A stretch of DNA of 40,187 nucleotides from Candidatus Thorarchaeota archaeon (GCA_003345545.1 PRDH01000070.1:1-40187), one strand, 5' to 3'. Shown: positions 17,963-29,815, counted from the first letter of the stretch. Notes: generated by a model from the letters alone, not told the origin. A program made the numbers and translations.

Positions 17963-19699
17963 CTACTCGTGATACACTTTGCGTACCTCTTTGACAACAA
18001 GCCCGGGTAGCTCTTTCACAGACCTGATAGGATAGACTGAAGCCCCAGCTTTCTCAAGGGCCTGATGAGTCTTAGAGGCGCGGGAGCTAGTTCCAGTGCC
18101 TATGTGGAAGAGAAACAACTTGTGACCCCTCTTGGTAAGTGATTCAACAGCTCCTACCGTCTGTTTCCAGTTTGACACCTCAGCATCGGTTATGAGCAGA
18201 ACAATGGATTCTTTCTCGGCACTTCCGCACACTTCGCTTATCTTGCTCACAGGTGCAACGGTGCCTCCGCCTTGGTATGCCAATAGGACCCTCTCGACGG
18301 GGACTCTCTCTCTTGTCCAATCACAAACTTGCACACCATCAGAGAAGTTGATTGCAGCTACTCTGCAGCCTCGCCGAAATGCAAAGTCCATCGCAGCAAA
18401 TGCCGAAACAAGCGCAGTATGGTAGTCACCAGAAATCGTGGTGGGACGCATTTCCCAGGTCATTGAAGCTGATGAGTCTATGACAATCAACATGTCAGGA
18501 GTGGTCCTGGAAACTTTGGAGTCAGTTGTTACATAGTGTTGCCACTTTCTTGTTGAACGATTCGGAATGAGTACGGGAAAGGCCTGAAGAGACTGAACAA
18601 TATCGAGCTCTTCCAGAGGGTCACCCAGCCTCCAGACTTCGGGCACTAATGGAACTGCCCCAGTCAATCTAGAAGAGTCTACTTCAAATCGAATCGCTCC
18701 GTATGCTTTTGCGCGATACCAAAAACGAGTCCAGGCAGCCCTCTCCGATCCGATGCCAGCTGTTAGGAAGACGCCCTGCAAGTCCTCAATGTTACCGTCC
18801 AGTTGTTCAATATCAATAGCAAGCCGTTCCATCTCCTCTTCAAGGTCTGTTGAATTGGCTCCTTCCAAGCACTTTCTTGCTAAGTCGCCATTTCTGACCT
18901 CGACAGGACTTCCCATTATCCCATCTACATCCAATGGGACAGCAATGACTCTCCGCGAGCCATCCACTCCCTCTTGTTGAACTTCATTTGATGCTCCCGA
19001 ATAGGCACCAAGCAAGCTCTCGTCATCGGGCATCCACTTACGTAGTATCTCTGCAATCTTTTCGCAAGAAGAAGGCCACCGATGCTCGAGTTCGATTGAC
19101 GCGCGTGCAATGCGCGCTATCTCATTGGCCACCGCGAAAGTGCGCTGCTCTATATCGACCGTAGGCGGAATTGGAAATCCCCACATTACTCTATAGGAGG
19201 AAACAATCAGTTTCCAGAGATCACTGTGGTCCTGAGTCCTCATCGCGGAATCATGGATAGAGGAAATGATCCGACTATGGGTGAGAGACAGAAATCTTCT
19301 CAACAGACTCGAGTCCACGACAAAATCCGCAAAGAGATTACAGACGAACATTGCTGCGGCATCATTGACATGCTTCCGTGCAGCTGCGAACATTCTTCCA
19401 TTCATCACGCTATCATATGGACACAGAAGATAGTGCTGAATCTCGTGCTGGCAGATGGACCTAAGAAAAGAGTTGACCTCTTCGATACTCATGTGCAGAG
19501 GGACTCCAGCTAGATTGAGATGCACAGTCCAGTTGCCAGAGTCGATGTAGAAGAAGCTGCTAACTCCAGGAATGTACTCAATCTCAGGGTCTGGAAGTGG
19601 AGGATGATAGAAGTCAGTAACAGCTAGAGCCCATGCACTGGCTGCTGCGGAGCCGTACCCATTCTCGTCAGAAGGCTTGCTAGCAGTCACATCCATCAT
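17963..19699 (-). CDS. HExxH metallopeptidase-like domain plus C-terminal VWA domain protein
   Basis: QHEIQHY followed by NLFADFVVD; MIDAS elements VIDSSASM, GGT and ITDAE. Confidence 0.85.
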   Translation of the reverse strand: MMDVTASKPSDENGYGSAAASAWALAVTDFYHPPLPDPEIEYIPGVSSFFYIDSGNWTVHLNLAGVPLHMSIEEVNSFLRSICQHEIQHYLLCPYDSVMNGRMFAAARKHVNDAAAMFVCNLFADFVVDSSLLRRFLSLTHSRIISSIHDSAMRTQDHSDLWKLIVSSYRVMWGFPIPPTVDIEQRTFAVANEIARIARASIELEHRWPSSCEKIAEILRKWMPDDESLLGAYSGASNEVQQEGVDGSRRVIAVPLDVDGIMGSPVEVRNGDLARKCLEGANSTDLEEEMERLAIDIEQLDGNIEDLQGVFLTAGIGSERAAWTRFWYRAKAYGAIRFEVDSSRLTGAVPLVPEVWRLGDPLEELDIVQSLQAFPVLIPNRSTRKWQHYVTTDSKVSRTTPDMLIVIDSSASMTWEMRPTTISGDYHTALVSAFAAMDFAFRRGCRVAAINFSDGVQVCDWTRERVPVERVLLAYQGGGTVAPVSKISEVCGSAEKESIVLLITDAEVSNWKQTVGAVESLTKRGHKLFLFHIGTGTSSRASKTHQALEKAGASVYPIRSVKELPGLVVKEVRKVYHE

Positions 19700-19708
19700 T
19701 ATAGCATC

Positions 19709-21418
19709 CTATGATTCGATATGTTTCTGAAGTTCATCTTTGAGTCGGACTGCCTCGGTCCCGCCAGAAATCTCCAAGAAGACAGCAGACTCTGGAGAGT
19801 CGCCTGTGACGTAGACCACTAGAGTCAGACCATCTATTCTGAGAGCTCTTCTCTTCGGCGGAGTCAGCGTTTCTTTGAGCATTGGAGTGAGTTTTGGATA
19901 TCTCAGTCCGATAGTTGTCCAGAGCTCTTGCCACTGCTCGAACGTCAACTCAAACTGGGTGAGTGTCAACCTGTGGAGCGCATCAGAAACTTGCTTCAAG
20001 AGCACACTTCTGTTTGGAAAGTCAGTATTGTACATGAGTTCATCATGTGTCTTCGTAAGTTGTTCAATATCCCGATCCTTAATCCCGCGTTCTATTTTCT
20101 GCACTGTGGTCACATATCGGGGTTTCTTGAGCTCTCTGGCGAACTCTGAGTAATCGAGTTGCACAAGTAGATCGCTCTTGGCCATCTCCTTCAGCTGTTC
20201 AAATGACTCCTTTGACTCGTTCCCATGCTTCAATTGCTCTATGATTTCAATGGCAGGAGCCCTCTGAGCATAACGAGAAGTCGCCAGCTCTACAAGATGT
20301 TGAGTGAAGGCATAGAGGTCACCATAGTAGGGAGTCCGCTCGGACTCTTCCCTCACAAACTTGGTCCTATGCCAGAAGACAAGCGGAGCCAAGGACTTGA
20401 CAATCTCTATGCTCACTTCATGAGACCCGACAAGCCAAGCAGTGGCCTTTGAATATCGATTCAGATCCTTTGCTGCCCGTACGCTGAGAGGCACAATCAC
20501 CTTGTTACAGACACTCTTTGCAGTATTGAAATGACATCCGTCGCAGAGGCCAGTATCGACAGTCAAGCCCGATGACTGACTCTTGTCTACTCTGATACAT
20601 GCTCCGAACTCCCGTACGAGAGACCGCATGTACTCGGACGCCTCTGGCGACACAGGTATCTTGTCGGCGAGATTCCAGATTGTGAGGAGGTTCTCTTCTG
20701 TCAAGATCGCAGGCACTTGCCAGAGTTCATCAAAACCGAATAGACGTTCATCACGAGAGGAAAGTATTAGTTCCAAGTCACTCACTGTTGGCATGGTGAT
20801 TGGAACTGCCAAGCCAAATCTATCAAGAAATGGAGGACCAATATCGAAGGTTCCAGAATCAGCAGGATTGAGCGTGGCATACAGGCTGTACTCATCGCAT
20901 CTCTTGACTTCATCATAATACTTGACCTCACCTTCAGCGAGAAGAGAGAGCAGTATGTTCTGAGAGTGAGGAGTCAGACGATTCACTTCATCTATGATTT
21001 TCCAGAAACCCGTGATAAAAGAGCGCCATACAACAACCTCTAGTCCCTCTTTCATGAGGGGACCAGGACGTAGCGTGGCCACCATCTTTTCTTCAGTAAG
21101 TTGAGGGTGACCTCTGAGAATACCATCCTCAATCTCCTCAAGGCTCTTTCCGGTCATCATGCGACCTAGTATCTTGACCAATGTCGTCTTTCCGCCACCG
21201 TGGCCACCAATGAGCAGCATTGCAGAACGGGGTACTAGTGCATTGAGGACGCAAGAACCTACTATCAGGGGAATTCGTGTGGTCTGTGTCTTGTCCTTCG
21301 TTCCAGTAGTGGTGTACTTGATTTCCAAATCCGTAGAGTGCACAAAGAGACCTCTGCTCTCTACCGTGGTAATGACGCTTCTAACCAGTTCTTGAAGTTT
21401 CGATGTCGGAGAACTCAT
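19709..21418 (-). CDS. MoxR-like AAA+ ATPase
   Basis: Walker A GGHGGGKTT, Walker B IIDEVNR, QNILLSLLAEG, sensor-1 ATLNP, FLDRF, sensor-2-like SVRA; 9 bp upstream of the VWA gene. Confidence 0.88.
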   Translation of the reverse strand: MSSPTSKLQELVRSVITTVESRGLFVHSTDLEIKYTTTGTKDKTQTTRIPLIVGSCVLNALVPRSAMLLIGGHGGGKTTLVKILGRMMTGKSLEEIEDGILRGHPQLTEEKMVATLRPGPLMKEGLEVVVWRSFITGFWKIIDEVNRLTPHSQNILLSLLAEGEVKYYDEVKRCDEYSLYATLNPADSGTFDIGPPFLDRFGLAVPITMPTVSDLELILSSRDERLFGFDELWQVPAILTEENLLTIWNLADKIPVSPEASEYMRSLVREFGACIRVDKSQSSGLTVDTGLCDGCHFNTAKSVCNKVIVPLSVRAAKDLNRYSKATAWLVGSHEVSIEIVKSLAPLVFWHRTKFVREESERTPYYGDLYAFTQHLVELATSRYAQRAPAIEIIEQLKHGNESKESFEQLKEMAKSDLLVQLDYSEFARELKKPRYVTTVQKIERGIKDRDIEQLTKTHDELMYNTDFPNRSVLLKQVSDALHRLTLTQFELTFEQWQELWTTIGLRYPKLTPMLKETLTPPKRRALRIDGLTLVVYVTGDSPESAVFLEISGGTEAVRLKDELQKHIES

Positions 21419-21682
21419 GGCATCACAGGCTAGGGTACACTGAGTCTATAATGCTTATGAACATCCCCAACGGGGCGCGAATTGAAGAGCTGCAGTAGCA
21501 CCGTTATCTCAGTTGCATCATTGCCTCAGGGAATTAAGAATCCATTCACAATTCTAGAAATTATTCTGCCAGACAAAGCCCCCGGAGAGCAATGAGGTTC
21601 TGGATTTCGAAACGGTCATTATTTGTGAAAGGCGCCGAAATGTACCTCCTCCGAAGATGTAATATGTGTTCATGAGAAAACC

Positions 21683-22780
21683 ATGGGACCAAAAAAGCGG
21701 GGTTGCAGATTGGGCGAAGAGAAAACCTATGCTGAAGCAATCACTCTGATAGAACCAGAGAAACAGCCTACAGAACGGTTGAGCCAATACTCAGTGGTAA
21801 CAAGAGCGATGGAACATCACGCGTTGATGAATCGCTATGGTAGTCTGAAGAAGAAGCTCATTGATGCAGGACTGCAATTTGGCGGCCGAGTTCTTCTGAT
21901 CGGATCCCCGGGGACAGATTTCGAGGCATTTGTCCAATACCTGAGTCAGGAAGTACCCCTCAAACTGGTGCGATTCAGGATGGACATTCTGCTGAACGAA
22001 GTCAAGAGAGGAGCCGAGATACTGAGAGTCGGATTCGAGTTCGCGAGGAGGAATTCTCCGGCTGCCATGTATGTAGAAAAATTGGAGTCTGTTTCGCCCG
22101 CCAGCAGTGAACGCTCTGCAGTCCTTCAAGATGAACTGGCGCGAACAGGATGGGATGGGGAAGAAGTCTTGGTCATCGCATCCACAACAAGACCCCAGGA
22201 TGTCGATACTGATGTCCTCTCAACATTCGATAGAGTCTATGTCATAGAGGGAACAACGCTTGAAGACCGAGTGCGGCTGTTTGAACAGACATTGAAAGGC
22301 CACGAGAATATAGATCCAACAGCGGTAGCAGAGTTGACTGATGGCTGGGGCTACTCCAGCACGAAACAGCTTGCTGTGAGTCTTTTCATGACCGAGACCG
22401 AAGAAGGCGGTCAGATCCCCAGAGATAAGATTGAGGAGATGATAGAGAAAAGTTGCGTCATGCCGCTCAACAACCCCAGATACCTAGAGTCAGTCATCGG
22501 GCGCACTGGAGGAACAACGAAACACAAGATAGAAACTCTGCGTACTGAGTATCCTGATGACTTTCTAGACCAGCTCTATCTCATGGCGGCGGGAGAAGAC
22601 TATTCAGCAACTCAGAGAGCCATAGAGGTCTTGAATGACGGAATGCCGCTATCCAACGAAGACCGCGAGGTACTCTCCAGATATCCGTTCCTTCTGAACG
22701 GAACGCCGGAAGACAGACTGACGAGGCTTCTGAGAGCAAAGAAAAGCAATGACAGACTTCAGAGGATTATGGGACGTTAA
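21683..22780 (+). CDS. Degenerate (probably inactive) classic-clade AAA+ protein
   Basis: RVLLIGSPGTDFE (Walker A lacking GK[ST]), FARRNSPAAMYVEKLE (degenerate Walker B), VIASTTRPQDVDTDVLSTFDR (SRH-like), LTDGWGYS lid. True start may be TTG 21710. Confidence 0.8.
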   Translation: MGPKKRGCRLGEEKTYAEAITLIEPEKQPTERLSQYSVVTRAMEHHALMNRYGSLKKKLIDAGLQFGGRVLLIGSPGTDFEAFVQYLSQEVPLKLVRFRMDILLNEVKRGAEILRVGFEFARRNSPAAMYVEKLESVSPASSERSAVLQDELARTGWDGEEVLVIASTTRPQDVDTDVLSTFDRVYVIEGTTLEDRVRLFEQTLKGHENIDPTAVAELTDGWGYSSTKQLAVSLFMTETEEGGQIPRDKIEEMIEKSCVMPLNNPRYLESVIGRTGGTTKHKIETLRTEYPDDFLDQLYLMAAGEDYSATQRAIEVLNDGMPLSNEDREVLSRYPFLLNGTPEDRLTRLLRAKKSNDRLQRIMGR

Positions 22781-22795
22781 CCAGGGGAACTGAAT

Positions 22796-25700
22796 TTGGG
22801 CAATATCAGAGCTTACGTTGAATCGGCAAAGTTGGACAACTTCCTCTCATTCTACTCGGGAAAAGTCGTCTTCGACAGAGGACTGACTGTCCTAGCTGGG
22901 CCTAATGGTTCAGGCAAGACATCCGTCTTTCATGCTCTGAAGTTCGCACTGGGCTCAAATCAGCGAGAGAATCGATACGGTAAATGGAGCGATTTCATTA
23001 GACACGGAGCAAGTACTGCACAAGTCGAAGTTATAGTCAAGGTCAACGGTCAAGACAGGAAGTTCCAACGGAAGATTGACCATGATGGTATCCCTAGAGC
23101 ATATGTAGACGGTCGACGAGTCAAAGCTGCTGAACTCAGACAGATAGTTCAGTCATTCGGGCTGGATACGGACAATCCTCTAGTCTTTATCCCTCAGGAG
23201 AGAATCAACGCAGTACGAGACATGGATCCGTACGAAGTGAGAAAGCTCGTTGAAGAGGGAACTGGTCTTGATGTCCTTCGAGACAGAATAATACTCCAAG
23301 AAACCGAGGTTGTTCAGAGTCGACAGCGACTGACAGCAGCTCTTGCAGAATCGAAGTCAGTAGAGAGAGAGCTTGAACTGCTTCAGCATGACCTCAGCCG
23401 TCTTGAAAAGAAAAGAGCCCTCCAAGAACAGGAGAAGCTACTTGAAAAAGACCTGCTATGGGCATCTCTTGATGACTTGACTGGAAAAATCGATTCTGTC
23501 AAGACCGAGATTGACGGGAAGGAGGCAGGTCTCGTATCGATACTTGACGAACAGACACGTGTTCAATCGGAGATCGCTAGTAATGAACAAGAAACTGAGA
23601 GCGTTGAAATAAGGCTCTCGAATCTGCAGATTGAACTCGGCCGCATCGATGCTAAGATTGAAGAAGAGGAACATAATCTGGCTCGTATCGAGGGGGATTC
23701 ACAGAAACAAGTAAGTGAATTCAAGCAGCTTGAGAAGGAAATCAAGACAGAAACGAGAAACAAGGAAAAACTCCAGGAAGATATCGAACGAATTACATCT
23801 ACTAAAGAAGACACCATGGAGAAGCAGCGTGAACTTCGTTTGTCACTTCAGACTATAGAAGACGAACGAAACCACCTCAGAGATGAATTGGAAGCTTTTG
23901 CTGACTGGAACACCAAGAGAGCAGAATCCCATGGGAGATACAAAGCGCTTCAAGCGGAGATTGAAGGGAAAGACCTGCTCTTGCGAAGTGTGAAAGAGAG
24001 AATGCAAGTAGAAGAAGCAGAACTTCAGTCGATAGAGAGCAAGTGGTCACATGTATGGTCTGCAATGGAGAAATCCGATGAGAAAGAGCTGGCAAAGAAG
24101 AAAGGCCAGCTAGAGAGGGAGATTGCTTCTCTGAATGAAGAACGATTCCGGCAGAGCAGTATAGTATCCCAACTCCAGAAGGATATTGATGAGCTCAATG
24201 TGCGACTCTCTGAAACATCCAAACGTATTCCCGAAGCGGTCAAGCAACTGAAGGATGCAATTGCAGAGCACAAATTGGAGAGTGTCACAGGTCCGCTTAT
24301 CGAGCTCTTCACCGCGGATGATTCCATAGCCTGTGCAGTTGAGGCAGTGCTGCCCGACAATATGATACTAGCCTTCATAGTCACAGATGAATCAGACTTC
24401 CAGATACTCCAGAAGCTCAGGGATAATGCTGAGGCGCCATCTCCACTGATTCTGCTGAAGCCTTCAGGAGATCAAGGTGAACGCCCAGCACTGAAGACCG
24501 AGGCCGGTGTGGAAGGATGGCTCTGGGATAGGCTCAACATCGACGATGAGACCAAGGGACTCTTACGAAGAGCTGTCGGAGACTTTGTTCTCACAAAGAA
24601 CATTCGATCTGCAACGCGTCTTGCAGCAAAGGAGGGACTCAGGGGGGTCTCCGTGGACGGGCATGTCATTATTCCAGACCCTGACAAGATTGTAAGCAAT
24701 CCAAAGATTCTGCCATCAGGAATGGTTTCAACTGCGCCCCTCCAGTCGCGTCTCTCCAGCGCAGACAAAGAACTGACTCTGGCCAAGAAGCGAGTCACCG
24801 ACACCATGATGGCTCTGGACGAACTGACAGGTCAGAGAGAAGAAGTACTGGATCTGCTGAGTCAGATGACTCGGTGGAGCGGGAGCTGGGAGCGACGAAG
24901 GAGTCTACTTGAAACTATCCCTGTACAGGAAGAGAGAATCGCTGCGCTCGATGAAGAACTAAAGGGGCTTCAAGCAGAGCTCGGTAAATCAGAGAGGGAA
25001 CTTAGAAAACTGGACAACACCCAGCCTCCTGAACGAAGCAGATTGATTGGACAAGACTCAGCTCTCCGCATCAAGCACCGACAGCTCCAGGCAGACCTTA
25101 CCAAAGTGGACGCGCGAGCAAATGCAGCTGAACGCGATGAAGAGATCAAGCGTCAGGAGCTGAAGAGGGTTGTTGAGAATGTCACCATGCTGACAAACAG
25201 CCTCGACGAGTTGCGTGCGGAAATCCTGGAATCAAAGAGCGCTGCCTCTAGAATCCTTAGGAAGATAGAAGTTCTCAGGGCAAGCCAGGAAGGGGCCCGG
25301 AACCAGAAAAGTGAGCTTGCTGAGGAAATGGGACGACTTAGGGAAACAAATCGTTCTCTAGGCGGGAGGATTGTGGAACTCAACCTCGTCATCAAGGAAC
25401 AAAAGATACAGGTCCTTCAGGCCAAGCGACAATTGACGAACATGGAGTATGATCTCGAGAACCTCGAACGGGACCTTGATGAACAAGAAAGACCAGATGC
25501 AGTGAAACCCCTAGAACAGGTAAGGAATGAACTTGTGAAGCTTCGCCACATCCTGGATGACTATCAAGATGTATCCGAGAGCGTGGCGCACACCGAAATA
25601 CAACTGAAGGGGCGGTTGACTACTCTCGTTGAGAGAGTGACGGAGCTGCAAGAGGAATTAGGAGAAGCAGAGTCTACTGTCAAGGATATACGAGAGCAGT

Positions 25701-26167
25701 ATCACAACGGAATGAATGAAACCTTGCGCAATGTTGAGAAGAATGTGAATGAAGTTCTAGGAAGTGTTCAATTCCCTGGAAGTGTTCGTTTCGAACTTGC
25801 GCTCAGAGAGGGAGACTATGGTGTAGAGTTCAAATCGAGAATCAAAGCGGAAGGCTTTGGCGAAATCCGTGCAGGGTCCGGCGGCGAGAAATCTCTCATC
25901 GCCATCTCGTTGATTCTAGCCCTTCAAAGATATAATCCTGCTCCGGTCTATGTATTAGATGAAGTCGATACATTTCTCGATGCCACGAACACCGAACTTG
26001 TGAGTAGACTCTTCCATGACGCATCCCGCAGAAGTCAATTCATCCTTCTTACGCCCGCAAAGAGCACTCACCTTCTGAAACACGCAGACAGGATATTGGG
26101 AATCGTTTCACCCAATGGCGTCGAACCGTCAGTAATAATCGAGAGTCCGAAGTTCAAGGGGCAGTAG
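22796..26167 (+). CDS. smc: SMC-family ATPase, SMC5/6-like
   Basis: GPNGSGKTS, DNPLVFIPQERI Q-loop, long coiled coils, central hinge (VTGPLIEL...VEAVL...AFIV), SGGEKS signature, LDEVDTFLD, SQFILLTP; TTG start. Confidence 0.95.
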   Translation: MGNIRAYVESAKLDNFLSFYSGKVVFDRGLTVLAGPNGSGKTSVFHALKFALGSNQRENRYGKWSDFIRHGASTAQVEVIVKVNGQDRKFQRKIDHDGIPRAYVDGRRVKAAELRQIVQSFGLDTDNPLVFIPQERINAVRDMDPYEVRKLVEEGTGLDVLRDRIILQETEVVQSRQRLTAALAESKSVERELELLQHDLSRLEKKRALQEQEKLLEKDLLWASLDDLTGKIDSVKTEIDGKEAGLVSILDEQTRVQSEIASNEQETESVEIRLSNLQIELGRIDAKIEEEEHNLARIEGDSQKQVSEFKQLEKEIKTETRNKEKLQEDIERITSTKEDTMEKQRELRLSLQTIEDERNHLRDELEAFADWNTKRAESHGRYKALQAEIEGKDLLLRSVKERMQVEEAELQSIESKWSHVWSAMEKSDEKELAKKKGQLEREIASLNEERFRQSSIVSQLQKDIDELNVRLSETSKRIPEAVKQLKDAIAEHKLESVTGPLIELFTADDSIACAVEAVLPDNMILAFIVTDESDFQILQKLRDNAEAPSPLILLKPSGDQGERPALKTEAGVEGWLWDRLNIDDETKGLLRRAVGDFVLTKNIRSATRLAAKEGLRGVSVDGHVIIPDPDKIVSNPKILPSGMVSTAPLQSRLSSADKELTLAKKRVTDTMMALDELTGQREEVLDLLSQMTRWSGSWERRRSLLETIPVQEERIAALDEELKGLQAELGKSERELRKLDNTQPPERSRLIGQDSALRIKHRQLQADLTKVDARANAAERDEEIKRQELKRVVENVTMLTNSLDELRAEILESKSAASRILRKIEVLRASQEGARNQKSELAEEMGRLRETNRSLGGRIVELNLVIKEQKIQVLQAKRQLTNMEYDLENLERDLDEQERPDAVKPLEQVRNELVKLRHILDDYQDVSESVAHTEIQLKGRLTTLVERVTELQEELGEAESTVKDIREQYHNGMNETLRNVEKNVNEVLGSVQFPGSVRFELALREGDYGVEFKSRIKAEGFGEIRAGSGGEKSLIAISLILALQRYNPAPVYVLDEVDTFLDATNTELVSRLFHDASRRSQFILLTPAKSTHLLKHADRILGIVSPNGVEPSVIIESPKFKGQ

Positions 26168-26177
26168 GGGTGGGAGA

Positions 26178-26828
26178 GTGGAAGAGAAGAGTCTAGCAGC
26201 CAGAGTCTACGAGATAGTACAGGCAGCTCGCTCCGGAGAGATTGATCCACTTGAACTGCGATTGACAGACTCATACAGAGAACTGAAGGAGCTAGTGGCA
26301 AGAATCGACAGTAGGATTGACATCGATGAGATGTTGAATGAGGTTCTGGGGGCGAAGGTGAATCGTGTTCAGGAGTTGGCAAGAGTTCTTGCTTCTCCAG
26401 AGGTCTATGTTGCTCGTTTGAAGGAGAAATCAATGAGGGATATTGCCAGACTCTTGGTCCAGAGACAGCCAGTTGTCATAGGCCATCTTGAGCGACTCTC
26501 ACTGAACGAGTCCCTTGACAGAATCGTTCAGTTCATAGATGCAATGACTCGTGAGGCACCTCAAGACAAAGTGCCAAAGATGAGCGGACTTCCAAATGGT
26601 TTCGCTCTGGAAACTGAAGATACTGTCTTCATGGAAGACCTTGAGAAGTTCCTTGCAAGAATTCCTCAAGATGGAAAGGCCATCTTTGACGATATCATTG
26701 AGAGTGCTGAGTTTGACATCTTTCTCAGGCATTTCCTCTATGTCATACTCCTTGTATCCCAAGGACGTCTATTGTATAATCCGGCCACACGACAACTACG
26801 GAGACCACTTGTTCCCGAGGCAACATAA
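26178..26828 (+). CDS. Kleisin subunit (ScpA/Nse4-like)
   Basis: 10 bp after the smc stop; N-terminal GEIDPLELRL resembles ScpA ELDPWDIDI; C-terminal winged helix FLYVILLVSQGRL; GTG start. Confidence 0.75.
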   Translation: MEEKSLAARVYEIVQAARSGEIDPLELRLTDSYRELKELVARIDSRIDIDEMLNEVLGAKVNRVQELARVLASPEVYVARLKEKSMRDIARLLVQRQPVVIGHLERLSLNESLDRIVQFIDAMTREAPQDKVPKMSGLPNGFALETEDTVFMEDLEKFLARIPQDGKAIFDDIIESAEFDIFLRHFLYVILLVSQGRLLYNPATRQLRRPLVPEAT

Positions 26829-26909
26829 GAACAGTGGCAATCAGTAGCTAAGGCGAACGGAGTGCTCATTCTTGGAGAGGGCCGGTGCAACGTCGGCGTC
26901 TCTCGACAT

Positions 26910-28271
26910 TCACACAGAGACCTCAAGAGGAAGCTCGGTGGTTGATTCAACGGATTGGTTGTCTTTCTTTGCGAGTCGGGAGTGCAACTCTAATTTGGCA
27001 ATAGCTGCAAAGCCCAGAAGGGAAACGAATACTAAGACAACAGACGCGCCGATGAAGGGAGGACCTGTCGAGCCAACTGCTTCGGCCCATACTCCGCCAA
27101 TTCCCATTCCAATAACCTGTACAGCTGTGAATACGACATTTAGAAGGGAAAAGACACGACCACGGAACCTATCTTCTACGAGCGCCTGCATCAATACACT
27201 GAGAGGTATGTTCAGAATCACATCAACAGCACCAATCATTGCCCAAGCAAGCAGCACGCTCAAGAAATCATACGCTATGACCAGTGCGAAGACACCAACA
27301 CCTGCCAGAAGACCAGCAAACGCAATGAGATACAATGGTTTCTCGATTTTGCTTTTACGACTTAGATAGACAGCCGCTGCAGCCCCTGTGGCAGCACCAG
27401 CACTGAGTATCAATCCAATCTGGGCAGGTCCAAACCCCAATGCTCCTTCGAAATATGGCATCAGGAGTGCATTGAGTATCCCAGAAGACCCTGCGAGTAG
27501 CACTGCAAACACGAACAGGAATGAGAGAACGGCATTTCCTATGACATAGCGGCCGCCTTGGACTATCTGTTCTCGTAGTGATTCGTACTCCACATACATA
27601 CTCCGTGGTCTGAGATCAGTCGATATTCCACGGAGAACAATGGCTGATAGAATGAAGGTCATCGATGTGATGGCAAAGGCAAGGAAATAGTTGGGAGCAA
27701 GGAGCGCAATCAAAACACCTCCGAGAGGAGGAACAACTAACTGAACAACCTGGAAAGTCATCTGAGATAGAGAGTTCGCTGCGACTAGTTCGTCGCCTCC
27801 CACAAGATTGGGAATAGATGCGCTCCTTGCTGGAAAGAACCATGCATTTGCAGTTGCATGGATAAACGTCAAGAGATACACCCAGTAAATCGGGGGGGTG
27901 AACGATGGAAAATACACAGTCAAAGGTATCAGTATAATTGCAGCAGCTCGAACGATATCTGATGCAATCATGATTCTCTTGCGATTCCAACGATCAACAT
28001 ATACACCAATGAAGCCTGCAAAAACGACAACAGGTAGCACTTCAAACATGGCAAGTACTGCCATTGCCATGGCAGAACCTGTCAGGTCATAGGCGTAGAA
28101 CAGGAGGGCAAGGGCAGATACAGCAGTGCCAATATTCGATACAAGTTGCCCGAACCAGAGGCGTGAGTAATCAGGATGACGAAGAGCGGCCCTAAAGCCA
28201 CTCTGTTGTTGTTCATCTGCAGCACCCTCAGGTTGTTGCTGAACAATCAACGATTCTACCATCCAAAGCAC
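26910..28271 (-). CDS. MFS transporter (DHA3/macrolide-efflux-like)
   Basis: LWFGQLVSNIG, motif A GVYVDRWNRKRIMI, FFPARSASIP, RGRVFS; about 12 hydrophobic segments. Confidence 0.93.
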   Translation of the reverse strand: MLWMVESLIVQQQPEGAADEQQQSGFRAALRHPDYSRLWFGQLVSNIGTAVSALALLFYAYDLTGSAMAMAVLAMFEVLPVVVFAGFIGVYVDRWNRKRIMIASDIVRAAAIILIPLTVYFPSFTPPIYWVYLLTFIHATANAWFFPARSASIPNLVGGDELVAANSLSQMTFQVVQLVVPPLGGVLIALLAPNYFLAFAITSMTFILSAIVLRGISTDLRPRSMYVEYESLREQIVQGGRYVIGNAVLSFLFVFAVLLAGSSGILNALLMPYFEGALGFGPAQIGLILSAGAATGAAAAVYLSRKSKIEKPLYLIAFAGLLAGVGVFALVIAYDFLSVLLAWAMIGAVDVILNIPLSVLMQALVEDRFRGRVFSLLNVVFTAVQVIGMGIGGVWAEAVGSTGPPFIGASVVLVFVSLLGFAAIAKLELHSRLAKKDNQSVESTTELPLEVSV

Positions 28272-28880
28272 ACCTCTGTCATTGCCTCTGTCGAAAGCAG
28301 AGGTTTTCGTGGTGCTCGTTCCTGGGGAATTGGTTCGATTCTCTGGCGTGTCATTCTAGCACCCCATCCTCGATACGAACGCCAGAGCCAATGCATCAGC
28401 GATTTGTACATTGATGGACCGATTTCTCTTGGTCAGAAGAATCAATTGAGAATTATCTCGAAGAGCCATGATCATTCACATTCTCCTATTGACTGGTCAG
28501 TGGTATTGTTCGTTCTGAGCTGCAATGACCACATCTGTGACCACTGTGTGACCACAAGCCCATGGGATGGGAATCAGAGGTCGTCATCATGACAATTCGC
28601 TCAGAGGATGTCATGTGCAACTACCTGACAAATGAGAGGTATGCATATGCAATAGCATCAGTACTCTGAACTTGGCGAGCAGCCTTGTTCTTTCGAAAGG
28701 TTGAGTTGTTGATTGTTGGAGTCATAATAGTTCACATGAAATACAGCTCAGAATTGGTATATATAGCGAAGCCACTCTTGAGGGACACAGGATGAAGTCA
28801 CAAGATGTGACTACCTCTAGAGCACGTCGCGTGCCTGACAGGTCATACTTTATACCTGATTGTACTGGAGAATTCGAGAT

Positions 28881-29384
28881 ATGAACGAGTATGCCGTGCT
28901 TGTCAAGCTCCTCACACGAACAGGAACACCCATTGGCGCAAGCATAGATGACATGCTCGATGCACTCGGTCTCCCCGAGGATGTTGGGAGGCATGTTCTA
29001 TTCCAAAAGCTGAGTGACCTTCATGAGAGGGTCAGACCACTAGGTCTTGTTATCAAGCACAATCCAATATCGGGTGTCTTCTATCTTGACACCTCCAGCG
29101 AGGTCAGGCTTCCTCAAGATGGCACCACATTGCCAGACAGGCTTGCGGCAACCCTTCTTATTGTAATGACACTTGCCTACCAAGACGGTGGCTGGGTGAA
29201 TGTCGAAAGAGTCAGAGAGTTCAGGAAGAAGGCGCTGCAGGGTGTGATGGTCGATCTTCGTGAACTGCAGAGTCAGGGCTATGTTGAGCTGGATCAGGAC
29301 AGGAAGCGAGTACGCCTTGGAACGAAAGTGCCGTTCGAGATCGATTACGAGGCTTTCTTCAAGGACCTTGCAGAGAGTCAGTAA
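28881..29384 (+). CDS. Kite-family tandem winged-helix protein (ScpB/Nse1/Nse3/JetB-like)
   Basis: WH-A LSDLHERVRPLGLVIKHN..SGVFYL; WH-B LAATLLIVMTLAYQ...DLRELQSQGYV; near smc and kleisin. Start placed at ATG 28881. Confidence 0.65.
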   Translation: MNEYAVLVKLLTRTGTPIGASIDDMLDALGLPEDVGRHVLFQKLSDLHERVRPLGLVIKHNPISGVFYLDTSSEVRLPQDGTTLPDRLAATLLIVMTLAYQDGGWVNVERVREFRKKALQGVMVDLRELQSQGYVELDQDRKRVRLGTKVPFEIDYEAFFKDLAESQ

Positions 29385-29455
29385 GTATCTCAGAAAGAAG
29401 GTTCCTTCGCTAGTTTTATCAGCAGTCAGATACGACTCAAGACTGGTCAGTAATC

Positions 29456-29815
29456 ATGTCCCACAATCGTTCTCTTCGATTTTCACAGTCTACCTGCCCA
29501 GTCTGTGGAGGCAAGGAAGTTGCCCGAGATGACCTCAAGGGAGACCTTCTGTGCACCAACTGCGGACATATCGTGACCCGTACCGAATCGAGAAGTGTTG
29601 GCAAGTACGATATCGCTCAACACCTCAAGCGAAACGGGAAGATGACCTTCCCGAGCCTGAAGGAAGTCACCGGAGCCTCTGATGACAAGCTCTTCGGTGT
29701 ACTCCAAGGCATGGAGAGCATGGAACTTGTCGAACAGGTAGCAGGACAATATACTCTCACAAAGAAAGGACAGAGATGGTACCGTCAAAGACTGGGACAG
29801 GAGTGGGGATACTAA
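29456..29815 (+). CDS. TFIIB-type Zn ribbon plus winged-helix protein
   Basis: CPVCGGKEVARDDLKGDLLCTNCG (TFB-like ribbon), then IAQHLKRNGKMTFPSLKEVTG...LVEQ..GQYTLTKKG (wHTH). Confidence 0.8.
   Translation: MSHNRSLRFSQSTCPVCGGKEVARDDLKGDLLCTNCGHIVTRTESRSVGKYDIAQHLKRNGKMTFPSLKEVTGASDDKLFGVLQGMESMELVEQVAGQYTLTKKGQRWYRQRLGQEWGY

Follow-up and report, generated by a model that had tools for sequence, protein, structure and literature searches.

The second structural maintenance of chromosomes (SMC) operons of TACK and Asgard archaea have been called SMC5/6-related (Yoshinaga & Inagaki 2021, PMC8665677; van Hooff et al. 2025, bioRxiv 10.1101/2024.01.07.573240). In Table S3 of the latter study, a Thorarchaeaceae genome is scored with SMC5/6-related SMCs and an Nse1/3-related kite, and a Jordarchaeum with a neighboring SMC5/6-related SMC, Nse4-related kleisin, and kite (10.1101/2024.01.07.573240). 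This SMC5/6-related operon has also been assigned, in published work, to the cultured Promethearchaeum syntrophicum. Here, we describe an operon of this kind in a stretch of 40,187 nucleotides (nt) from a Candidatus Thorarchaeota archaeon (GCA_003345545.1 PRDH01000070.1:1-40187), with "the window" referring throughout to this whole stretch. Besides genes for an SMC, a kleisin, and a kite, the locus carries a gene for a degenerate AAA protein, here called X, and a pair of genes for a MoxR-type AAA+ ATPase and a von Willebrand factor A (VWA) protein with an HExxH motif. We lean toward viewing these six genes as one functional module.

Since a second, SMC5/6-related archaeal operon has already been published, the SMC-kleisin-kite core is not new, and only the accessories are. 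The published operons resemble the one described here in joining a second SMC paralogue, a short kleisin, and a non-ScpB kite, but the papers leave both the dead AAA gene and the MoxR/HExxH-VWA pair unmentioned, and "AAA" has no relevant occurrence in their main text or supplements. A preliminary description of this DNA, made from the sequence alone, had matched the accessory set to no described SMC system. This has held up, as the literature that we searched yielded no paper describing X and the MoxR/HExxH-VWA pair together with an SMC operon.

The eukaryotic Smc5/6-Nse1/3/4 complex, with Nse5/6 and Nse2, is likewise built on an SMC-kleisin-kite core with extra non-catalytic regulatory subunits. 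The operon in the window differs from it in having one SMC (predicted to form a homodimer) and one kite, in having a dead AAA+ protein rather than an alpha-solenoid pair as its accessory, and in lacking a RING or SUMO-ligase domain. Wadjet (JetABCD)/MksBEFG systems similarly combine SMC, kleisin, and kite with an accessory protein, but the locus described here has no JetD or Toprim protein, shows marginal similarity to JetC (E 1.4e-6) and only weak matches to DUF4194 in 2 of 23 kites, and lies outside a defense island.

Pairs of a MoxR-class ATPase and a VWA protein are known from other settings. In CbbQ-CbbO, NorQ-NorD, and midasin, an adaptor bearing a VWA domain with a metal-ion-dependent adhesion site (MIDAS) docks on the target, and the AAA+ ring pulls. 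The pair in the window is like these and like RavA-ViaA, with an intact MoxR-class AAA+ protein beside a protein of ~570 amino acids (aa) that has a C-terminal VWA/MIDAS, as in midasin (Rea1). It differs in the N-terminal HExxH of the adaptor, in the four-Cys cluster and long C-terminal extension of the ATPase, and in its genomic partner, which is an SMC complex rather than a metabolic enzyme or the ribosome.

An SMC operon headed by a degenerate AAA protein

In the SMC protein of the window, the Pfam models SMC_N and SMC_hinge cover residues 8-1105 and 495-610, respectively. The ABC-ATPase residues are invariant among 22 orthologues, comprising G35/K41 of Walker A, Q134 of the Q-loop, S1028/G1030 of the signature, and D1055/E1056 of Walker B. 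The protein scores 288.5 bits against TIGR02169, below the cutoff of 729 bits, and is therefore not a canonical archaeal Smc. The canonical SMC of the same genome is found on contig C6, where it scores 855 bits against the same model and is followed by proteins matching ScpA and ScpB in Pfam. A maximum-likelihood tree puts the paralogous SMCs and the canonical Asgard SMCs in separate clades with 100/100 support. The operon thus resembles canonical Smc-ScpA-ScpB in its architecture and in detectable kleisin and kite homology but differs from it in its separate locus, in the score of its SMC (288 against 855 bits), and in a kleisin and kite that have no ScpA or ScpB matches in Pfam.

The 216-aa protein encoded after the SMC is identified as a kleisin by profile comparison. 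The profile of its family aligned with Asgard ScpA over its full length (hhalign, 97.8% probability, E 7e-13, 213 columns), and in the PDB it matched the C-terminal winged helix (4i99_C, 5xns_C, 5xg3_C) and the N-terminus (6ivh_A) of ScpA at matching positions. The 23 members of the family had no Pfam matches at E up to 1, including to ScpA and Nse4, and no Nse4 chains were among the results of the PDB profile search. By the same approach, the product of a 174-aa open reading frame (ORF) is assigned as a kite, a protein with tandem winged helices, its family aligning with ScpB over the full length (hhalign, 88% probability, E 3e-6, 172 columns). Members of the kite family gave winged helix-turn-helix (wHTH) matches in Pfam, in addition to the two weak DUF4194 matches mentioned above, and none of the 23 matched the ScpB, Nse1, or MAGE models. 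In most genomes, the kite gene comes directly after the kleisin gene.

The relationship of this SMC to the eukaryotic families depends on how it is compared. As a single sequence, the window SMC scores 83 bits against SMC2 and 47 bits against SMC6, and the canonical SMC scores 270 bits against SMC2, with SMC5/6 outside the top 60. In contrast to eukaryotic Smc5/6, the profile of the SMC paralogues is nearer to SMC2/3 (~250 bits) than to SMC5/6 (~170 bits). Compared with the canonical SMC, the paralogue lies relatively nearer to SMC5/6, yet its absolute scores favor SMC2/3. A 42-aa query around the SMC H-loop was uninformative, matching prokaryotic SMC heads only (QFILLTPAKS against QFIVITHNK or QFIVITLR) and no SMC5/6 chains. 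The SMC5/6 label rests on published phylogenies, including Table S3 of van Hooff et al. The preliminary description had called the system "SMC5/6-type"; the SMC, kleisin, and kite set behind an AAA protein that is catalytically dead is indeed present, and the label is taken from those phylogenies.

The protein at the head of the operon, X, has the motifs GSPGTDFE (Walker A), MYVEKLE (Walker B), and STFDR, with degenerate Walker A, Walker B, and Arg-finger positions. Its AlphaFold2 (AF2) model (predicted local distance difference test score, pLDDT, 90.7) has a classical AAA fold followed by a three-helix C-terminal domain (~residues 292-363), and the top fold matches of the model are PAN, FtsH, VCP, and Vps4, with the first three at E ~1e-11. 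Because the fold of the classical AAA clade is present but the catalytic motifs are degenerate, X is a pseudo-ATPase, and it may be a dedicated non-catalytic subunit or adaptor of the SMC complex.

X varies among Asgard archaea, whose families are labeled f1-f27 here, with f1 being the family of the window, f2 its sister, f7 the Jordarchaeales, and f9 and f24 families of the Lokiarchaeia type. Full-length orthologues were found in f1 and, more weakly, in f2; elsewhere, only the last ~80 residues of X matched initially, and these C-terminal matches sit ~4.4 kb upstream of matches to the kite. We fetched 40 loci from eight families (f1, f2, f7, f8, f9, f19, f20, and f24), and the order X-SMC-kleisin-kite was found in all 40, as far as each contig reached, the f20 locus being a 4.3-kb contig limited to the kleisin, the kite, and MoxR together with a portion of the VWA gene. 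In the Jordarchaeales, the operon genes overlap stop to start. Across families, X ranges from 271 to 481 aa, and Pfam recognizes a full AAA domain in f19 and the AAA lid only in f7 and f8, with no match in f9 or f24. The P-loop is retained solely in the X of f19 (GRSGTGKT, with DN at Walker B), all other aligned X proteins being degenerate.

What the X proteins share is a C-terminal motif, QLY..A...Y...L..G..L...D..L..YPF.L...P......L..AKK. The C-terminal domain had no consistent Pfam family among the 29 members scanned. Among 1.84 billion representative proteins, it accounts for only 109 clusters when grouped at 50% identity, and its position in full-length proteins is nearly always C-terminal; the named members are from Promethearchaeota and Sigynarchaeota, both of which are Asgard. 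A Protein Atlas search with this domain returned its own Thorarchaeia (Thor) cluster and sub-threshold helical matches only, and hhalign found no homology between X and either the kleisin or the VWA protein.

Some variants of the operon were also seen. In an f19 locus (L068 7694-12701), the SMC, at only 835 aa, has a very long branch. In one Thorarchaeota metagenome-assembled genome (MAG), the SMC paralogue is divided among three ORFs of 797, 239, and 70 aa (L045 7533-10899, the same region as L116), which reflects either a pseudogene or an assembly error. In a Jordarchaeia-like MAG (L092 8030-12292, the same region as L149), the order MoxR-VWA-X is kept, with X in two ORFs and no SMC gene following; the kite is at the edge of another contig.

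The MoxR-VWA pair and its linkage to the operon

The MoxR protein has intact Walker A (GGHGGGKT) and Walker B (IIDE) motifs, and the best PDB matches of its profile are MoxR 2r44 (6e-17), midasin (6e-10), and BchI of Mg-chelatase. Four invariant cysteines in the lid region (C274, C292, C295, and C304) may form a zinc site, which would be unusual for MoxR ATPases, and the protein has a C-terminal extension of ~200 aa. In a search of 185,579 species genomes, the best 80 of its 204 relatives were all Asgard.

In the partner protein, the HExxH and MIDAS motifs are both conserved in orthologues from f1, f7, f8, f9, and f24, and VWA_2 matches 18 of 21 members in Pfam. Residues 394-578 of its AF2 model (pLDDT 78.6) align to VWA domains (Z 18), with structural matches that include NorD, from the NorQ-NorD complex, and Rea1-MIDAS. 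The HExxH domain is modeled as three short strands, then the helix that carries HExxH (72-91), and then a helical bundle, an arrangement compatible with a zincin fold; the fold search with the whole 578-aa model was filled by matches to the VWA domain.

Three different arrangements connect this pair to the SMC operon. Of the 48 Thorarchaeia loci with enough upstream DNA, 47 have the pair in divergent orientation to X, and f2 has the same order. In f7 and f8, MoxR-VWA-X-SMC-kleisin-kite lie on one strand with overlapping stops and starts, and on one f20 contig the order is kleisin-kite-MoxR-VWA, with the pair downstream of the kite. Across the 201 Asgard genomes that we sampled, the pair and the operon also have matching distributions. 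Both the kite and MoxR of the SMC-linked clade are present in f1, f2, f7, f8, f9, f20, and f24, and neither was found in the 89 genomes sampled from the other 18 families, save for a weak MoxR match (E 3e-21) in f23. X, kite, and MoxR are all absent from the three genomes, up to 96% complete, of Thor genus g5. At the syntenic site in this genus, NfnAB-like genes abut a Zn-ribbon/wHTH gene, which is followed in genome G046 by a WD40 gene; what is missing is exactly the block of six genes that runs from VWA to kite, and the canonical ScpA is still present.

The trees of the SMC paralogue and of MoxR share the groups (f7,f8), (f1,f2), and (f9,f24), including Lokiarchaeia-type genomes in which the genes are unlinked, with the MoxR tree being a quick tree built without bootstrap support. 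In genome G076, X is still beside MoxR-VWA although the SMC gene does not follow. The pair occurs with the operon, is absent with it, and groups in trees with it. The preliminary description had tied the AAA and VWA genes to this SMC, and they proved to be both linked to and co-distributed with it across Asgard families.

Several observations weigh against a single module. In f9 and f24, the pair and the X-SMC operon occupy separate contigs, with GatC, HAD, and further housekeeping genes around the pair, so adjacency is not universal. MoxR was found in 0 of 6 genomes of f19, though this family has X-SMC-kleisin-kite. Within Thorarchaeia, the unrelated NfnAB-like genes are also syntenic, and inheritance of gene order may explain part of the adjacency. 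One deletion of contiguous DNA could account for the joint absence in g5, irrespective of what the genes do. The N-terminal HExxH domain of the VWA protein had no match to a peptidase family, in Pfam or among PDB sequences. Finally, the pair is convergent to canonical SMC-ScpB in f9 genus g39 (4/4 genomes) and in one f24 genome, an arrangement by which the link to the X-SMC operon is either widened or blurred. The canonical SMC at these loci is directly followed by ScpB, with no ScpA gene between them (L087 7948-15643; L176-L178; L091 1843-9781).

These points raise the alternative that MoxR and the HExxH-VWA protein are an independent chaperone with another client, that their adjacency is inherited, and that only X-SMC-kleisin-kite is a functional unit. 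The unlinked pairs in Lokiarchaeia-type genomes, the syntenic NfnAB-like genes of Thorarchaeia, and the f19 operon without MoxR all fit with this, and characterized MoxR-VWA pairs are reported to have metabolic enzymes as their clients. An independent chaperone sits less well with three different adjacent gene orders in separate families, with a family-level phyletic pattern that matches and includes the joint absence in g5, and with the agreement of tree topologies at the family level. It also does not readily account for G076, where X stays beside the pair with no SMC gene after it, or for the fact that the sole other recurring neighbor of the pair, in g39 and the one f24 genome, is also an SMC, albeit the canonical one. 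We consider an independent chaperone rather unlikely and favor, with some confidence, the reading of HExxH-VWA, MoxR, X, SMC, kleisin, and kite as one functional module.

A separate MoxR-VWA lineage was also found. MoxR copies from f17, along with most of those from f20, belong to a paralogue clade of their own, whose VWA partner has lost HExxH. This paralogous pair (L079-L082, L084, and L085) is not near any SMC gene, and upstream of it in L079-L082, the loci whose contigs reach far enough upstream, is a conserved ORF of 440-483 aa with no significant Pfam match.

Layout of the locus and neighboring genes

The MoxR/VWA pair, on the minus strand, stands head to head with X-SMC-kleisin, on the plus strand, across 264 bp (Table 1). 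The VWA gene begins 9 bp downstream of the MoxR gene, and the two are always paired. On the plus strand, X and SMC are separated by 15 bp and SMC and kleisin by 10 bp. For the kite, orthologues align from the ATG at 28881. The gene positions, the head-to-head arrangement, and the two short gaps given in the preliminary description were all reproduced, with 264 bp for an intergenic region that it had put at about 260.

Table 1. Features of the locus, with coordinates in the window
Feature	Coordinates	Strand	Remarks
HExxH-VWA protein, 578 aa	17963-19699	-	HEIQH at residue 85, DSSAS MIDAS at residue 408
MoxR-type AAA+, 569 aa	19709-21418	-	AAA_5 E 4.5e-12, AAA_lid_2, intact Walker A/B
Divergent intergenic region, 264 bp	21419-21682	no strand	promoter-like block before X
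X, degenerate AAA, 365 aa	21683-22780	+	Pfam AAA E 6e-7
SMC, 1123 aa	22796-26167	+	SMC_N 8.8e-39, SMC_hinge 4.5e-10
Kleisin, 216 aa	26178-26828	+	hhalign match to ScpA; no Pfam match
MFS transporter	26910-28271	-	between kleisin and kite genes
Kite, ~167 aa	28881-29384	+	hhalign match to ScpB; longest ORF (174 aa) from 28860
Zn-ribbon + wHTH protein, 119 aa	29456-29815	+	TFIIB-type Zn ribbon

Two further genes had been mentioned beside the run by the preliminary description. The major facilitator superfamily (MFS) gene, on the minus strand, is an unrelated insertion. Loci with it were those of the window's genus plus a single further Thor locus (L046), and the remaining Thor genera examined have the kite abutting the kleisin with no MFS gene between them. 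The Zn-ribbon/wHTH gene is limited to Thorarchaeia (42 of 43 f1 genomes and 1/1 in f2), and its product is kept at 74-77% identity in genus g5. Since this gene is retained in g5, which lost the other six, it does not belong to the module. Of the genes first listed, the pseudo-AAA, SMC, kleisin, kite, and MoxR/VWA genes are kept as members, and the MFS and Zn-ribbon/wHTH genes are not.

The divergent intergenic region contains a block, GGCGC-N13-CCGAAGAnGTAATAT, that ends ~20 nt before the ATG of X and, in 15 intergenic regions aligned with MAFFT, is kept across many Thor genera (window 21600-21682). This block is probably a TFB-recognition element (BRE)/TATA element with an upstream factor site, and it suggests a leaderless or short-leader operon transcript. 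One wetland metatranscriptome run yielded six short contigs, covering the SMC gene only, and such contigs cannot prove transcription; three other runs contained next to none of the sampled words.

The remaining genes of the window are housekeeping genes, encoding a thermosome subunit, mevalonate-pathway enzymes, NAD(P)HX repair, NfnAB-like oxidoreductase subunits, an H+-pyrophosphatase, and a WD40 protein. Along the window, GC content is uniform, and the names on the SMC homologues are Thorarchaeota. These surroundings bear on another possible role for the locus, that of a system for defense or against episomes, akin to Wadjet, Lamassu, or Smc5/6 restriction, in which the SMC would sense foreign DNA and the MoxR/VWA-peptidase would be the effector. 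Some features are in keeping with such a role. The module is dispensable and patchy, having been lost in g5 and not found in many Asgard families, and its SMC gives generic PADLOC matches to mad3, LmuB, and JetC. Eukaryotic SMC5/6 is reported to restrict extrachromosomal DNA (PMC9458440), and MoxR-vWA modules are reported from conflict systems (PMC7159879).

The locus is otherwise unlike mobile defense islands. It has a stable chromosomal position among housekeeping genes with even GC content, its trees group by genome family, the loci examined show a single copy per genome, and the MoxR protein is strongly conserved, at 45-97% identity. No nuclease or known effector is apparent, and X, MoxR, VWA, kleisin, and kite have no specific PADLOC match. 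The PADLOC scan of the eight proteins of the locus returned generic SMC-head matches only, with no JetD, other nuclease, or LmuA among them, bearing out the absence of a JetD-type Toprim nuclease noted in the preliminary description. A defense function, which that description had offered as an option, is quite unlikely given the housekeeping flanks and the lack of a specific PADLOC defense match.

A candidate machine acting on SMC rings

A central question of chromosome biology is how SMC rings come to be loaded, released, and turned over. Prokaryotes are not known to have an ATP-driven remodeller or a protease devoted to an SMC complex, and literature searches found none. The occurrence, loss, and tree grouping of the MoxR-VWA pair and X with the operon point to helpers that handle SMC rings. 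The association observed here is a genomic one, and the mechanism that follows is drawn by analogy with CbbQO, NorQD, and midasin.

In a single module of six genes, the core would be an SMC homodimer with a short kleisin and a kite dimer, present beside the canonical Smc-ScpA-ScpB. Judging from its family, this core is presumably an ATP-driven ring that entraps DNA or forms loops. X would serve as a non-catalytic subunit or adaptor of the SMC complex, and the MIDAS adaptor would dock on that complex, perhaps via X. In the most likely mechanism, the MoxR ring would then remodel the SMC complex for assembly, release, or dismantling, with a possible proteolytic step by the HExxH site. The most far-reaching version of this proposal is a dedicated, ATP-driven Asgard machine in which a midasin-like MoxR ATPase, acting with a zinc-protease-motif MIDAS adaptor via X, opens, unloads, or cleaves the SMC5/6-related ring; we regard it as unlikely in this specific form. 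The idea is directly testable, as all six proteins are small enough for co-expression.

The module is present in the closest archaeal relatives of eukaryotes, on a complex that is thought to be ancestral to SMC5/6. It joins that complex with relatives of eukaryote hallmarks, namely a midasin-like AAA+ ATPase with its MIDAS partner and a Cdc48/PAN-like AAA protein. If the proposal is true, the ring-opening machine would be a prokaryotic functional counterpart of Wapl- or separase-type release or cleavage, one that arose before eukaryotes.

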